From contig CAVZMW010000006.1 in the NCBI GenBank assembly GCA_963776495.1, positions 1,045,629-1,109,628 on the forward strand: a DNA stretch of 64,000 nt. The letters are read 5' to 3'. A program made the translations under genes and the position numbers. The stretch comes from an uncultured Acidobacteriota bacterium (GTDB lineage Bacteria > Acidobacteriota > Vicinamibacteria > Vicinamibacterales > Fen-181). Under the pieces are notes generated by a model. The model was not told the origin of the DNA, did no database searches, and was given only the letters and a program-made list of their open reading frames with translations. This document shows, piece after piece, positions 45,328 through 53,540 of this stretch. How positions within the stretch are numbered: position 1 is the stretch's first letter; each line of letters begins with the position of its first letter.

Positions 45328-46650
45328 TCAGAGGTCGTCGCTTGGCGAGGTTCTGCCATCCGGCCCGGCACGGTGGAGCATGTCGAGCGGGCTTCGCGGC
45401 GGATTGCGCAACTCCTTGACGACGTGCGTGTAGATCATCGTCGTCTCGACGTTTGCGTGGCCGAGGTATTCCTGGATCTGGCGGATATCGACACCGCTCA
45501 GGAGCAGGTGCGTCGCGAAACAGTGTCGCAGAGTGTGGACGGACACCGGCTTGTGGAGTCTCGCCCGAGCGGCGGCGGCCTTGACCGCCTTCTGGAGAAC
45601 GGATTCGGACAGGTGATGGCGGCGCACCACTCCGGCCCGCGGGTCTGTTGACAGCGTCTGGCTCGGAAAGACCCAGAACCACCCCCATTCGCGGCTGGCG
45701 TTCGGGTACTTCCGGTCAAGGGCTTCCGGCATCCACACGCCTGCCAGGCCGGCCTTGCGATCGGCCCGGTGGAGCGATTCGTTGGCGCGCAGGTGGGCGC
45801 GGAGGGGCTCCCGGCCGGCCTGGGCGAGGAGCGTCGACCGGTCCTTGTCGCCCTTCCCCGCGCGCACGAACACCAGTCCCTGATCGAAGTCGACGTCCTT
45901 TACCCGGAGTTCACAACACTCCGACACGCGGAGGCCGCCGCCGTAGATCAGCCCGGCCATGATTTGTGGGATGCCTCGCATCGCCTGCAGCAAGGCCGCG
46001 GTTTCGGGGACGCTCAGCACGACGGGCAGGCGGTCGCCGCGTTTTGCCCGTGGCGTGAGCGAGAGCCCTTCGGGGGTCAGTCCGACGACCTCCCGGCAGA
46101 GGAACAAGACGGCGCACATGGCCTGGTTTTGCGTGCTGGCCGAGACGTGCCGGTGTGTCGCGAGGTGGGTGAGGAAATCGCGAGCTCCTTCCGGGAGGAT
46201 CTGCGGCTGGGGGCTGTGCTGCTGGCCGCCGAGGTAGTCGAGAAAACGGCGCGCCCAGTCGATGTAAGTGCACTCCGTCCGGTAGGAGTAGTGCCGGGCC
46301 CGGATGCGCGACCGCATCTGCTCCAGCATGGCGAGTGGACCGGCGTGCGCCGGCCCGGCCGCGGCGTCGCGCGCCGTCTGTCGGTGCCAGTCGGTTCGCT
46401 GGAGGAAGTTGACGAAGTAAACCCGGAGCGCCTGTTCGGCTTGTTGGACCTGCCAGTCGGGAACCGCTCCCGACCGCTCCAGGTCGTCGCAGAAGTGGCG
46501 CACCTGGTCGGCGACTGGCTCGTCCACGGCCTGACGAGAGAGGAACTGCCGTACCCACCGGACGAAGTAGGGTGCGGCACTTGGACGCGCCAACTGGCGC
46601 TTCAGGAGGAACTCGGCGAACTGCTGCAGTTGCGACTCGGTTTCCCGCAC
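45328..46650 (-). CDS. intI: Integron integrase with N-terminal extension
   Basis: 440 aa. Tyrosine recombinase motifs GLRVSE, HTLRH.FATHLL, LGH....TMIYTHV. Carries the integron-specific insertion [21 protein letters not shown]. About 100 extra N-terminal residues relative to typical IntI. Confidence 0.9.
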   Translation of the reverse strand: [440 protein letters not shown]

Positions 46651-47035
46651 GGCGACCCGTCAGCCAGATGCTGTGCAGACTGGCGGCCGCCCCTCATCCG
46701 ATCGCCCAGGCCCCTGTCCGCACAAGGGTTGTGTCGCAGGGCAGCAGATGAGGCGCGCGCGCCTCCCGTTGCGACGAGGGCGGAGCGCCAACTCCAATTG
46801 CAAGGCGACCGTGCAATAGCCGCCGACTGGCCAACGACGGCAACTGGCGCACTGGGCCGCCGGCGCGATTCCGGCGTCCCGACGACATCCGCCCCTCGCA
46901 ACGTCTTCTTCAGAAAGGCACTTGCTTCTCGGGCTCCCTCGCAGGAGAATCCCCCTCGCCAGGCGTGTCCGGCGTCGCATGGAAACTGCGATTGCCCACC
47001 TGGAACCTGCGGTTCCCGCGTTCTACCTATTGGAT

Positions 47036-47042
47036 GTTAGGC
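47036..47042 (+). other. Candidate attI core (GTTAGGC)
   Basis: This is the first GTTRRRY-type core between intI and the first cassette ORF. It is identical to the R' core of attC 1. Confidence 0.45.
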
Positions 47043-47097
47043 CGTCGAACGTGATGCATTGCGTTCTGTAAATACAGCGTGCATACTTATTACTGCG

Positions 47098-47391
47098 ATG
47101 CGCGACATCCGGTTTGAGTGGGACCCGGCGAAAGCGGCCGCGAACGCCCGCAAGCACGGCGTGACCTTCGAAGAAGCGCAGACTGCGTTCTTCGACGATT
47201 TGGCTCTCGTGATTGACGACCCCGAACATTCGGAAGCCGAGACGAGGTTCGTTCTGTTGGGTCTGAGCGCCGCCGCTCGGATCCTCGTTGTCGTGCATGC
47301 CCACCGTTCGGCTCCCGACACAATTCGGATTATCTCGGCTCGCAAGGCCAGCAGGGCGGAGCGGGTCGGCTACGTGAAGAGGTTCCGATGA
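47098..47391 (+). CDS. brnT: BrnT-family toxin (DUF497)
   Basis: IRFEWDPAKAAANARKHGVTFEEA...IRIISARKA matches the BrnT pattern. ATG 47098 is preferred over the TTG at 47059. Confidence 0.85.
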   Translation: MRDIRFEWDPAKAAANARKHGVTFEEAQTAFFDDLALVIDDPEHSEAETRFVLLGLSAAARILVVVHAHRSAPDTIRIISARKASRAERVGYVKRFR

Positions 47392-47618
47392 GGAAGGAAT
47401 ATGACTTCAGCCGTGCACGACCAAATCCGTATGCGAAACGGCTCAAACGGCCCGTGACGATTCGCCTCGACCAAGCGACTGTCGCGTACTTCAAGGAGCT
47501 CGGAACGGAAACCGGGATTCCGTATCAAACGCTGATCAACTGGTACTTGCGCGACTGCGCGGCATCGAGGCGTCGTCCGACAATGCAATGGGTCGAACCC
47601 AAGAAGGGCGCGGCCTAA
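47388..47618 (+). CDS. brnA: BrnA-family antitoxin
   Basis: YDFSRARPNPYAKRLKRPVTIRLDQATVAYFK...GIPYQTLINWYLRDCA. Overlaps brnT by 4 nt. The stop TAA lies in the attC R'' core. Confidence 0.85.
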   Translation: MRKEYDFSRARPNPYAKRLKRPVTIRLDQATVAYFKELGTETGIPYQTLINWYLRDCAASRRRPTMQWVEPKKGAA

Positions 47619-47685
47619 CAAGCGCTTGCACCCGACGGCGCTCGCTGCGTTGGTCAGGCGCCGCGGGTGAAGCGCATCGTTAGGC
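47613..47685 (+). other. attC site 1 (73 bp)
   Basis: R'' gcctaac and R' gttaggc are perfectly complementary. The inner arms gcgcttgcaccc / gggtgaagcgc pair with one unpaired base. Confidence 0.85.
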
Positions 47686-47707
47686 GGTGCATCGAAGGGC
47701 ATCTGAT

Positions 47708-52109: not shown

Positions 52110-52412
52110 CTAGCGCCGACGCCTCCAGTAACCCGGACGCCGCTTGGTATGCGCCACGGCGACGACAATGATCTCGGCCGGCGCTGATCGGTAGACGATC
52201 TGGTAGGGGAAGCGAGGCAACAACAGGCGACGGGTCCGACGGTCGGCCGAAAGCGGAGTCCCCATCTCGGCGGTCGTGGGCAGGCTCTCAATGGACTCCA
52301 CGACGGCTTCGAACAACTCGCGCCCCAATCCCCGACGCCGAGCCTCGTACCATTCGACCGCCTCGGCAAGTTCCTCCGAGGCGTCTGCGTGAATACGAAG
52401 CGTTCGTGTCAC
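52110..52412 (-). CDS. RelE/ParE-family toxin (cassette in inverted orientation)
   Basis: GTG 52412. LRIHADASEELAEAVEWYE...FPYQIVYR...IIVVAVAHTKRRPGYW is typical of the family. Confidence 0.8.
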   Translation of the reverse strand: MTRTLRIHADASEELAEAVEWYEARRRGLGRELFEAVVESIESLPTTAEMGTPLSADRRTRRLLLPRFPYQIVYRSAPAEIIVVAVAHTKRRPGYWRRRR

Positions 52413-52645
52413 TGGCGGCCGAGGCCTCGCTCGACCCGTCGTTTGACCTCTTCCCAAGGCTCGAGTTGGGCAGTGCCTTCCTCGATTTCGGCAACCCGAC
52501 GTTCAATCTCCTGCGCCCACGCAGCTTCCGCGCCGGGATCGCCGGGGCCGTCAAGGCTCGCCAGGAGTTCTGCCGCCAGCTCGGCGCGGGCATCGACCTC
52601 GAGCTTGAGGGCCTCTGCCAGCACGGCCTGTGCTGCTCTGGTCAT
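52409..52645 (-). CDS. Addiction-module antitoxin component
   Basis: 78 aa. L.VDARAELAAELLASLD...AWAQEIERRVAEIEEG pattern. Overlaps the toxin start by 4 nt (GTGA). Confidence 0.75.
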   Translation of the reverse strand: MTRAAQAVLAEALKLEVDARAELAAELLASLDGPGDPGAEAAWAQEIERRVAEIEEGTAQLEPWEEVKRRVERGLGRQ

Positions 52646-52671
52646 GGGACGATTCTACGCTGCAAGTAGCC

Positions 52672-52747
52672 TCCCAACCAACGGCTGCGCCCGACGGCCG
52701 CCGGATTCTGACGCCGCGCGGCCGCGGCTGAACCGCATTCGTTCGCG
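52672..52747 (+). other. attC site 9 (76 bp)
   Basis: R''-like tcccaac, central ctgcgcccgacggccgc, R'-like gttcgcg. More degenerate than the other sites. Confidence 0.6.
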
Positions 52748-52785
52748 CGCATGACCGAGACCCGCCTCACGAGAGGAGTGCGTCC

Positions 52786-53456
52786 ATGAGGAAACTCATC
52801 GTATCGACGTTCGCGTCGCTTGACGGAATCATGCAAGCACCCGGCGGACCGGAAGAAGACCCCACTGGCGGGTTTGCCCTTGGCGGGTGGATGTTCGGCT
52901 ACGCGGACGAGAGCATGGACATCTCCGCATCGGGTTTCGACGGCAAGGACCGCGAATTGGTGCTCGGGCGCCGGACCTATCAGATATTCGAGGCGTACTG
53001 GCCCTATCAGCCGGACGACCACCCGATCGCGAAGACGCTGAATGCCGCGAAGAAGTATGTGGCGTCGCGCACGTTGACGATGCTCCATTGGAACAACTCG
53101 ACCCTGCTCCACGGCGATGTCGTCTCGGCAATCAACGCTCTCAAGGGCCAACCGGGCCCCGACCTGCAACTGATTGGCAGCGGCGATCTGATTCACACAC
53201 GCTTCAGGCCGCCTCGCTGATCGACGAGTACAACGTGTGGACGTTTCCAGTGGTACTCGGGCGGGGCAAGCGCCTCTTCAGCGAAACTGCCAGGCCATCG
53301 GCGCTGCGACTCGTTCGCTCTCAGGTGTCGCCCACCGGCGTGGTGATGAGTACCCATGTACCAGGCGGCGATATCCAGCCCGGTTCGTTTGCGAGTGCCG
53401 AGCCGAGCGAGAGGGAGTTGGCCCGACGCAAGCAGATGGCGGATGAGCTGTGGTGA
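52786..53456 (+). pseudogene. Dihydrofolate-reductase-family (RibD C-terminal-like) cassette gene with apparent frameshift
   Basis: The N-terminal part MRKLIVSTFASLDGIMQAPGG...GSGDLIH is in one frame. The remainder TLQAASLIDEYNVWTFPVVLGRGKRLF... is in the frame of track ORF 52887..53456. The junction is at the (CA)3 tract at 53194-53200. Confidence 0.75.
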
Positions 53457-53469
53457 TGTGAAGAGGACA

Positions 53470-53540
53470 GTGCGCGCGGACGCGCTGCACCCGACCGGCG
53501 CACGTGTCATCGTGAGCGGCGGCGGGAATGAGCGCCGCCC
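53470..53540 (+). other. Degenerate terminal attC-like remnant
   Basis: Contains the conserved attC centre gcgctgcacccgaccggcgc and a partly complementary ggcgggaatgagcgcc. No recognisable RYYYAAC/GTTRRRY cores. Abuts the stop of the next chromosomal gene. Confidence 0.45.

Follow-up and report, generated by a model that had tools for sequence, protein, structure and literature searches.

We examined a 64,000-nt stretch of contig CAVZMW010000006.1 from an uncultured Acidobacteriota bacterium (hereafter "the window", with positions counted from its first letter) and conclude, with a probability of about 93%, that a complete chromosomal integron of a soil-dwelling member of this phylum occupies its region 45328-53540. 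The element consists of an integron integrase gene (intI) on the minus strand, an attI site, nine intact cassettes and a decayed tenth one, and it lies among housekeeping genes (Table 1). An initial annotation, made from the sequence alone, had proposed a complete integron at this place. On re-examination of the sequence all the features that it listed were located at the positions it gave, and the intact intI, the attI, the cassette array and the chromosomal housekeeping surroundings bear the proposal out. What programs of the IntegronFinder type look for in a 'complete integron', namely a recombinase with the IntI-specific domain, attC sites near intI and an attI beside it, is present. Chromosomal integrons of Acidobacteria, with an attC model of their own, have already been published (PMC8352920, PMC9176274); the present locus adds another and is therefore a further example of a known element type. 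Some potential for novelty is confined to the long form of its integrase and to conserved motifs in the intI-attI spacer. Beyond that, the locus provides an acidobacterial array delimited from end to end, in which the cassette boundaries are exact and one cassette is present in two different integrons. Integrons of this kind are known mostly from fragmentary metagenomic amplicons.

An intact integron integrase gene

The translation of intI matched the NCBIfam model TIGR02249 ('integron integrase') with 382.2 bits, the curated cutoff of this model being 265 bits, and profile positions 1-315 aligned to residues 108-425. The models for XerC and XerD, in turn, gave 138 and 134 bits, far under their cutoffs of 335 and 330. 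Pfam matches comprised the SAM-like core-binding domain PF13495 (residues 109-190, 79.9 bits) and the catalytic domain PF00589 (residues 228-412), and the best solved structure was that of VchIntIA (PDB 2a3v, E 1.9e-68), residues 8-318 of which aligned to residues 111-423. The catalytic RKHRHY set corresponds to R241, K266, H372, R375, H398 and Y407, all of them invariant in two family alignments.

The initial annotation had described a minus-strand intI with an integron-specific insertion, and the 21-residue string that it singled out does lie at residues 310-330, on the I2 region. It had also regarded a recombinase lacking the IntI-specific domain in a hidden Markov model (HMM) alignment as incompatible with its reading; the full TIGR02249 profile, 382 bits, aligned. 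Residues W324, P337 and H345/H346 are the counterparts of VchIntIA W219, P232 and H240/H241 in the 2a3v alignment, and they are invariant or nearly so in the two family alignments. In the VchIntIA crystal structure, P232 and H240/H241 hold an extrahelical T (PMC3053210). Because of the TIGR02249 and 2a3v matches and the conservation of catalytic and contact residues, we consider intI an apparently intact integron integrase gene. Its closest homologues, in two soil metagenome-assembled genomes (MAGs; loci L001 and L008), show 79-80% identity and likewise point to an Acidobacteriota host.

Nine attC sites that keep a structure and not a sequence

Nine attC sites, delimited by RYYYAAC-type and GTTRRRY-type ends, were mapped, the first of them 963 bp from the intI start. 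Nine sites of 63-84 nt had been announced beforehand, and nine of exactly these lengths were confirmed. That they all possess well-formed R''/R' cores held for eight, whose boxes are of the RYYYAAC/GTTRRRY type, but not for site 9, whose boxes are weaker. When the bottom strands were folded as single-stranded DNA, a check that the initial annotation had recommended, attC1-8 proved more stable than dinucleotide shuffles (z -2.9 to -6.7). Each of these eight takes the classical attC hairpin shape: a short unpaired spacer separates the R-box stem from the L-box stem, the latter has two single-base bulges on its 3' arm, and the loop is variable.

Covariation across the sites supports this structure. 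RNAalifold applied to the nine bottom strands gave 18 L-stem pairs, and in 14 of these there were compensatory double changes. Once the R-box stem was included, which brings the total to 25 pairs, 91.9% of the cells were paired, compared with 73.5% in column shuffles, and double-sided changes were seen in 15 of the 25 pairs; none of 500 shuffles equalled any of the observed measures. When, as a register control, the 3' partners were shifted by 1-3 columns, pairing fell to 26-47%. The mean pairwise identity of the sites is 55%, so that structure has been kept while sequence has not.

One unpaired base in the inner stem had been reported; an unpaired base is present, but there are two fixed single-base bulges and not one. 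On the bottom strand these are a T in eight of the nine sites (an A in site 4) and a C in all nine, spaced 6 bp apart. T-N6-G is the common extrahelical form and the 6-bp spacing is required (PMC5027507), while T-N6-C sites are efficiently recombined by IntI1, IntI2*, IntI3 and SonIntIA (PMC3053210). Since the spacing is kept and the T-N6-C form can be recombined, the sites of the window represent a variant of this lineage that stays within what is known to function.

A tenth, degenerate site had also been proposed. A covariance model (R1) built from the nine bottom strands, whose scores on these training sites are circular, matched this tenth site, which lay outside the training set, with 30.1 bits (E ~1e-6), covering the L-box core only; over 46 nt the stretch shares 83% identity with attC6. 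It is a decayed attC that has lost its R boxes.

The same attC type in other acidobacterial integrons

Independent use of R1 was made on relatives and on the remainder of the window. Scanning 29 loci with homologous intI from other genomes recovered dozens of sites, with scores up to 79 bits, and all of them lay upstream of intI on the array strand, except for weaker opposite-strand echoes of strong sites. At E < 1e-6, 59 plus-strand sites in 19 of the relatives' loci share one orientation. The bulges of these sites are a T in 53 and a C in 52, figures biased by the training of R1 on the sites of the window. The attC type of the window is common to independent Acidobacteriota integron loci, where it lies on the cassette side of intI. 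As a side observation, the T-N6-C bulges, set against the commonly described T-N6-G, look like a signature of this lineage.

Elsewhere in the 64-kb window R1 found no further attC beyond the nine intact sites and the remnant, although many weak matches of 8-18 bits were scattered along it. The best of these (9765-9837, plus strand, 18 bits, E 0.0065) was rejected as a chance match: it falls inside a 1021-codon open reading frame (ORF) with a high GC content at third codon positions (GC3) and has no integron surroundings.

Cassette boundaries coincide with the predicted crossovers

The strongest single piece of evidence for an integron is a base-level comparison with locus L025, from an Acidobacteria MAG whose IntI is ~64% identical to that of the window. 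Positions 47036-47685, that is, the first cassette, are 83% identical to L025 1886-1236. The homology starts exactly at G/TTAGGC, upstream of which the window has its attI and L025 the attC of a preceding cassette, and its other limit is the cassette's own R' box. Between the two copies of attC1 there are paired substitutions that preserve the stem. Since the homology is bounded by the predicted crossovers, cassette 1 is a discrete unit that has entered this array at attI and another array at an attC. A second cassette, carrying a RibD_C gene, is also shared (75% identity, window 52770-53441; L025 was compared over 1-1952) and occupies another array position. These two shared cassettes are evidence that cassette exchange has apparently occurred between acidobacterial integrons. 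We also observed that the BrnTA and RibD_C cassettes stand in a different order in L025.

These comparisons bear on a more trivial explanation, in which the repeats are generic palindromes, either terminator hairpins or of the repetitive extragenic palindromic (REP) kind, that happen to adjoin an ordinary Xer-like recombinase. The sites are indeed GC-rich, imperfect and intergenic, weak R1 matches do occur across the window, and hairpins are common in a genome with a GC content of 68-70%. But generic hairpins would have to account for conserved RYYYAAC/GTTRRRY ends, for bulges 6 bp apart on one arm, for a uniform orientation and for the confinement of the repeats to the attI side of intI, here and in relatives, while the best match elsewhere in the window is coding. 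With the recombinase passing the integron-specific model and falling far below the Xer cutoffs, and with a homology to L025 that is precise to the cassette, this explanation is effectively refuted and we give it virtually no credence.

The attI site and the intI-attI spacer

A GTTAGGC core had been noted at 47036 and is present at 47036-47042. We aligned the 420-bp spacer, which runs from the start codon of intI to the first cassette, with those of seven relatives. At its attI end (GCGTTCTACCTATTGGAT/GTTRRRC) the sequence agrees with L001 and L008 as far as GTT and departs from them directly afterwards, and the homology of cassette 1 with L025 begins precisely at 47036, which places the attI junction at G47036/T47037. 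On these grounds attI was assigned, and binding of IntI there is predicted.

In the same alignment, a TTGnnn-N17/18-nAnAAT arrangement occurs at one position in seven of the eight sequences, with CTTG invariant. In the window it reads TTGCTT-N17-GAGAAT and faces attI and the cassettes. In view of its conservation we propose it as a candidate cassette promoter (Pc).

Upstream of intI, some 150 bp from its start, lies the palindrome CAACTCCAATTG, a one-mismatch version of CAAC-N4-GTTG. Among 22 Acidobacteriota-type loci, 17 have this motif with at most one mismatch at -115 to -157 of intI, 12 of them exactly, against a background of 0.03 per kb, and it often forms a tandem pair 20-21 bp apart. 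The window has a single copy, the position of the relatives' second tandem copy being degenerate. Conservation in this place suggests that CAAC-N4-GTTG is probably an operator. Elsewhere in the window the palindrome shows no enrichment (9 one-mismatch matches, 15 expected), and for this reason we do not tie it to a regulon such as SOS; the literature searched for a LexA link in Acidobacteria offered nothing relevant. Carriers of the motif include L002, L003, L006, L007, L009, L021 and L034, of which L006, L007 and L021 have two perfect copies. Outside the Acidobacteriota-type group, seven loci with the long form of intI have a different palindrome, ATACG-N5-CGTAT.

From these parts the element would work as follows. 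IntI, a tyrosine recombinase encoded on the minus strand and transcribed divergently from the array, would recognise the folded bottom strand of attC, through its R-box stem, L-box stem and extrahelical T-N6-C, together with double-stranded attI. It would cleave the conserved triplet between the G and the TT of GTTRRRY (top strand as written). Circular cassettes would thereby be inserted at attI and would be excised by attC x attC recombination. The attI-proximal cassettes would be transcribed from the spacer promoter, for which the TTGCTT-N17-GAGAAT at 46922-46950 is the candidate, whereas toxin-antitoxin (TA) cassettes, one of which is reversed, would have to carry promoters of their own and may be expected to stabilise the array.

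Cassettes and their cargo

Table 1. Coordinates of the integron features in the window (positions in nt; aa, amino acids; fold z, free fold of the bottom strand relative to dinucleotide shuffles)
Feature	Position	Strand	Length	Basis and remarks
intI, integron integrase, apparently intact	45328-46650	-	440 aa	TIGR02249, PF13495, PF00589, 2a3v match
IntI-specific insertion (aa 310-330), I2-helix region	45661-45723	-		aligned to VchIntIA 205-225
Canonical SAM-like core-binding domain of IntI (aa 108-195)	46066-46329	-		PF13495
Extra IntI N-terminal domain (aa 1 to ~95), predicted second, divergent four-helix copy of the SAM-like core-binding type	46366-46650	-		conservation, PF13495, hhalign, AF2
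Palindrome, candidate operator	46789-46800			one-mismatch CAAC-N4-GTTG
Candidate Pc	46922-46950	+		conservation
attI core, crossover G47036/T47037	47018-47042	+		conserved with L001, L008
attC1	47613-47685		73 nt	fold z -5.9; R1 85 bits (trained on it)
attC2	48440-48511		72 nt	fold z -4.1
attC3	49319-49390		72 nt	fold z -5.4
attC4	49863-49946		84 nt	fold z -4.1; first bulge A, not T
attC5	50281-50350		70 nt	fold z -2.9
attC6	51001-51073		73 nt	fold z -5.8
attC7	51546-51616		71 nt	fold z -6.7
attC8	52039-52101		63 nt	fold z -3.6
attC9	52672-52747		76 nt	weak R boxes TCCCAAC ... GTTCGCG; fold z -0.2; R1 62 bits (trained on it)
attC remnant (tenth site), R boxes gone	53482-53535	+		R1 model positions 12-63
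Cassette 1: BrnT toxin (~47098-47391) and BrnA antitoxin (47388-47618)	47037-47679	+		PF04365 100 bits, PF14384 36 bits
Cassette 2: HEPN protein (RiboL-PSP type), ORF 47687/47708-48445	47680-48505	+	~245-252 aa	PF18735 60 bits
Cassette 3: CPBP/Rce1-like intramembrane protease, ORF 48575-49375	48506-49384	+		PF02517 58 bits, NF041656 weak
Cassette 4: GNAT acetyltransferase, ORF 49413-49853	49385-49940	+		PF00583 52 bits
Cassette 5: conserved small hypothetical protein, ORF 49973-50335	49941-50344	+		227 homologues, without Pfam domain
Cassette 6: MazE/AbrB antitoxin (~50405-50661) and MazF/PemK toxin (50652-50990)	50345-51067	+		PF04014, PF02452
Cassette 7: DUF4279 protein, ORF 51081-51551	51068-51610	+		PF14106 53 bits
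Cassette 8: divergent DUF4279-like protein, ORF 51624-52037	51611-52095	+		similarity to cassette 7 protein
Cassette 9: ParE/RelE-type toxin (52110 to ~52412) and 'Unstab_antitox' antitoxin (52409-52645)	52096-52741	-		PF05016 34 bits, PF09720 57 bits
Cassette 10 (decayed): RibD_C/DHFR-family gene, 52786-53220 and 53199-53456	52742-53540	+		PF01872 on both halves

Most cassette ORFs stop within or just ahead of their attC, as is usual for cassettes. Three of the cassettes hold TA pairs (BrnTA, MazEF, and ParE/RelE with PF09720), recognised as adjacent small genes with family-model matches; their toxicity is predicted. In the MazEF pair the toxin scored 104 bits, while the antitoxin, with 24.2 bits, stayed just below the PF04014 cutoff of 24.7. 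The genes of the cassette 9 pair are encoded opposite to the array. The HEPN translation of cassette 2 has an R-x4-H motif (RGSIAH). The cassette 8 protein has no direct Pfam match; its identity with the protein of cassette 7 is 26% (E 0.003), and it belongs to a small family, one member of which carries PF14106. Members of the cassette 5 family are typically 94 aa long and end in ...SFVGE; the copy of the window is without that stop and runs 26 codons into attC5.

The gene of cassette 10 is frameshifted by +2 nt near 53190-53199, as placed against the intact 222-aa homologue of L025. This shift may not be biological, since a C-homopolymer frameshift elsewhere in the window signals possible assembly indels: in the OFOR alpha subunit gene (korA-type, 42737-43784) an additional C within a run of C near 43215 (~43205-43225; ...AAGTACCCGGAACCCGGTC...) puts the two parts of the gene in different frames, a split more likely to be a homopolymer assembly error than a pseudogene.

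Two side observations concern TA cassettes. Upstream of brnT, a 22-nt block (TGTAAATACAGCGTGCATACTT) is shared between the window (47060-47097) and L025 (reverse complement, ~1830-1865) while the neighbouring bases diverge; it is a candidate cassette-borne promoter or operator of BrnTA. In addition, a stretch of a 1.1-Mb plasmid of Gemmatirosa kalamazoonensis (NZ_CP007129.1, 847653-848169) is 68% identical in DNA to the MazEF cassette (50416-50926) and lies ~9 kb from the integron integrase gene of that replicon (856833-857774); it may represent this cassette family in an integron of the Gemmatimonadota.

The initial annotation had seen in these cassettes the most likely place in the window for an undescribed system. 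This expectation was not borne out: every cassette is a single gene or an ordinary two-gene TA pair, most of them with a Pfam assignment, and no PADLOC-DB 2.0 defence model matched at E <= 0.01 among the nine cassette proteins scanned and the intergenic ORF. A cargo of three TA pairs and HEPN, CPBP, GNAT and DUF4279 proteins fits general reports on environmental cassettes.

Genomic context and origin of the element

To the left, the element is flanked by genes for citrate synthase, URO-D, rubrerythrin, PTA and OFOR subunits, and to the right by those for an S15/CocE peptidase, AdoHcy hydrolase (AhcY) and a Clp ATPase; the source contig, of 1.6 Mb, has housekeeping genes on both sides of the element. 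The lower GC content ascribed to the array was confirmed and is most marked at third codon positions, the GC3 of the cassette genes being 0.65-0.86 and that of the flanking genes 0.94-0.97. Neither within the element nor next to it were transposase, resolvase, conjugation or plasmid genes found, and when its ends were searched for flanking inverted or direct repeats, only the attC families and chance-level pairs were returned. Scans for tRNA and tmRNA genes in the whole window and for Rfam families at 44000-55000 (E <= 0.1) found nothing.

Integrons have been called sedentary when they occur in 100% of the genomes of a species or have >19 attC sites, and mobile when they are plasmid-borne or have an IntI of classes 1-5 (Cury et al. 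2016, PMC4889954). The element has nine intact sites and one remnant, below the threshold of >19. Likewise, it sits on a 1.6-Mb contig between housekeeping genes and its IntI is at most 50% identical to class 1/3 types, which sets it apart from the mobile group. By these definitions it would be classed as 'other'. The sedentary status given to it in the initial annotation is plausible: the lack of transposase genes, plasmid genes and terminal repeats, the long contig, the TA-rich array and the attC type shared among Acidobacteriota all fit it.

Vertical inheritance has to be weighed against recent acquisition or mobility, in which a genuine integron would have arrived on an island or an unrecognised transposon. 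A small array would suit such an arrival, and so would the GC3 of intI (0.83), which lies between those of the cassettes and of the backbone, and the sharing of cassettes with integrons whose IntI is only 64% identical. The two loci with the closest intI (L001, L008) are in other neighbourhoods and share none of the OFOR/CocE/AhcY flanks, and in L008/L081 intI adjoins a trio of tyrosine recombinase genes, an IS1595 transposase gene lying inside the array of L081. Yet the housekeeping flanks of the element are free of mobility genes and of terminal repeats, its attC type matches that of other Acidobacteriota integrons, and no close relative was found on plasmids, the class 1-5-type IntIs being at most 50% identical and devoid of the N-terminal domain described below; with IntI identities of at most 80%, moreover, the relatives are too distant for their lack of synteny to be informative. 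Taken together, we consider a recent or mobile origin unlikely and favour a chromosomal integron that may be sedentary.

Is the integron still active?

Several observations weigh against a complete integron at this locus. The free minimum free energy (MFE) fold of attC9 is not better than dinucleotide shuffles (z -0.2). A simple sigma-70 consensus and terminator scan of 46300-47200 found nothing, the Pc candidate being below the threshold. In a tblastn synteny screen for OFOR, CocE, AhcY and IntI neighbours, none of 80 genome loci with intI homologues and 80 metagenome loci with CocE-like homologues (71-79% identity in the homology scan, 73-80% by tblastn) had the same OFOR/CocE/AhcY neighbourhood, an absence that is uninformative because the available relatives are too distant. 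Several related intI genes are pseudogenes, which indicates that inactivation of intI is common in the lineage: intI is frameshifted or interrupted by stops in L054, L015, L034 and L021 and shortened in L008/L081 and L037, and attC arrays still follow. Finally, the array gives no direct sign of present activity, its last cassette being decayed, the stop codon of cassette 5 lost and the R boxes of attC9 poor.

The same features could mean that the array is a fossil, structurally complete and no longer recombining, whose cassettes are simply inherited DNA. The remnant attC and frameshifted gene at its end, the lost stop codon, the degenerate attC9, the frequent pseudogenes among relatives and the degenerate copy of the upstream palindrome would all be in keeping with this. 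A fossil would not be expected to have retained a full-length intI ORF with every catalytic and attC-contact residue conserved, eight attC sites with near-perfect pairing and R boxes, and a precise attI junction at its first cassette, while decay at the distal end of an array is to be expected in active integrons too. We thus judge a fossil array improbable; the IntI of this complete integron may still be active.

An additional N-terminal domain in the integrase

The TIGR02249 and 2a3v alignments start at residues 108-111, and the first ~107 residues of IntI are hence extra. Homologues of ~431 aa span 97-98% of the query, and the N-terminus is conserved from its first residues in Acidobacteriota, Verrucomicrobiota, Kiritimatiellia, Nitrospirota, Omnitrophota, delta-proteobacterial MAGs and Planctomycetia; the start codon is thus not over-called.

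Several comparisons point to the nature of this segment. When scanned by itself, the segments of 15 diverse members gave PF13495 matches in 10 cases, along almost the whole profile and with a best E of 7e-7. An hhalign comparison of the N-terminal domain with the canonical core-binding copy gave a probability of 86.6% (E 4e-6). In an AlphaFold 2 (AF2) model, residues 1-89 form four helices (pLDDT 71-89) that mirror the four helices of the canonical domain. The model of the whole IntI is poor (pLDDT 60, pTM 0.36), so only its N-terminal secondary structure and local confidence were used and no fold search was made from it. By its sequence, the extra domain appears to be a conserved, divergent duplicate of the SAM-like core-binding domain.

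Used alone as a query, the N-terminal domain retrieved only ~540 representative clusters, mostly gene fragments with a few ~440-aa proteins, which points to its restriction to this IntI lineage. Plasmid IntIs in PLSDB (class 1/3 and others) align only to residues 108-425 and are without the domain; one copy of the long form sits on a Candidatus Thiodictyon megaplasmid. Hosts of the long form comprise, besides this one Chromatiales megaplasmid, Acidobacteriota, Verrucomicrobiota, Kiritimatiellia, Nitrospirota, Omnitrophota, Desulfobacterota-type MAGs and Planctomycetia. In a limited body of open-access literature we found no account of integron integrases that are extended at the N-terminus or possess a further domain. 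To our knowledge, the mechanistic and structural understanding of IntI comes wholly from short-form enzymes (IntI1, VchIntIA), and the N-terminal duplicate is absent from every IntI studied experimentally.

We therefore put forward, as a tentative and rather doubtful proposal, that these enzymes form a large, apparently undescribed 'long-form' lineage whose N-terminal domain may bind additional sites in the intI-attI spacer, for example the CAAC-N4-GTTG tandems. If so, there would be an arm-site-like or autoregulatory layer outside the 'simple, arm-less' model of IntI. A widespread environmental IntI lineage with an extra domain of a DNA-binding type and with spacer motifs suggests a different mode of attI recognition or regulation.

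Comparison with known systems

The nearest described systems are the integrons of Acidobacteria, for which a taxon-specific attC covariance model was built and chromosomal examples were catalogued (Ghaly et al. 2021, Commun Biol, PMC8352920). These are from the same phylum and likewise chromosomal, and throughout the taxon their attC sites keep both sequence and structure. With the model derived from the window, sites were recovered in some twelve loci of Acidobacteriota MAGs, which suggests that the attC type is the same as theirs. The array of the window and its insertion between the OFOR operon and the CocE/S15 peptidase gene were not found in the other records reached.

The superintegron of Vibrio cholerae (VchIntIA and the V. 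cholerae repeats, VCRs; 2a3v), the archetypal sedentary integron, resembles the element in the divergent layout of intI, attI and array, in bottom-strand attC hairpins with extrahelical bases, in the I2 insertion with the equivalents of P232 and H240/H241, and in many TA cassettes, including a reverse-oriented one. It differs in having >100 cassettes, compared with ~10 here. The attC sites of the window are 63-84 nt long, and VCRs are far more uniform than they are, with their mean pairwise identity of 55%. The bulges are T-N6-C here and not T/G, and the extra ~95-aa N-terminus of the IntI is missing in VchIntIA.

Mobile integrons of classes 1-3 (IntI1, IntI3) share the recombination chemistry and the site architecture and have attC sites of similar lengths, the general range being 57-141 bp (PMC5027507). 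Unlike them, the integron of the window has no Tn402/Tn7 context, carries no resistance genes and is not plasmid-borne, and its IntI is at most 50% identical to theirs, which align to it over residues 108-425 only. The candidate Pc lies in the intergenic spacer and not inside intI, which is where the Pc of class 1 is located.

Among tyrosine recombinases at large, IntI has been placed with the 'simple', arm-less enzymes of two domains (Smyshlyaev et al., bioRxiv 10.1101/542381). The IntI of the window agrees with this group in its PF13495 core-binding and PF00589 catalytic domains, to which the IntI-specific insertion is added. It departs from the group in that its lineage has a third domain, in all appearance a second, divergent SAM-like copy of the core-binding type, which sits where the integrases of phages and of integrative and conjugative elements (ICEs) carry an unrelated arm-binding domain.

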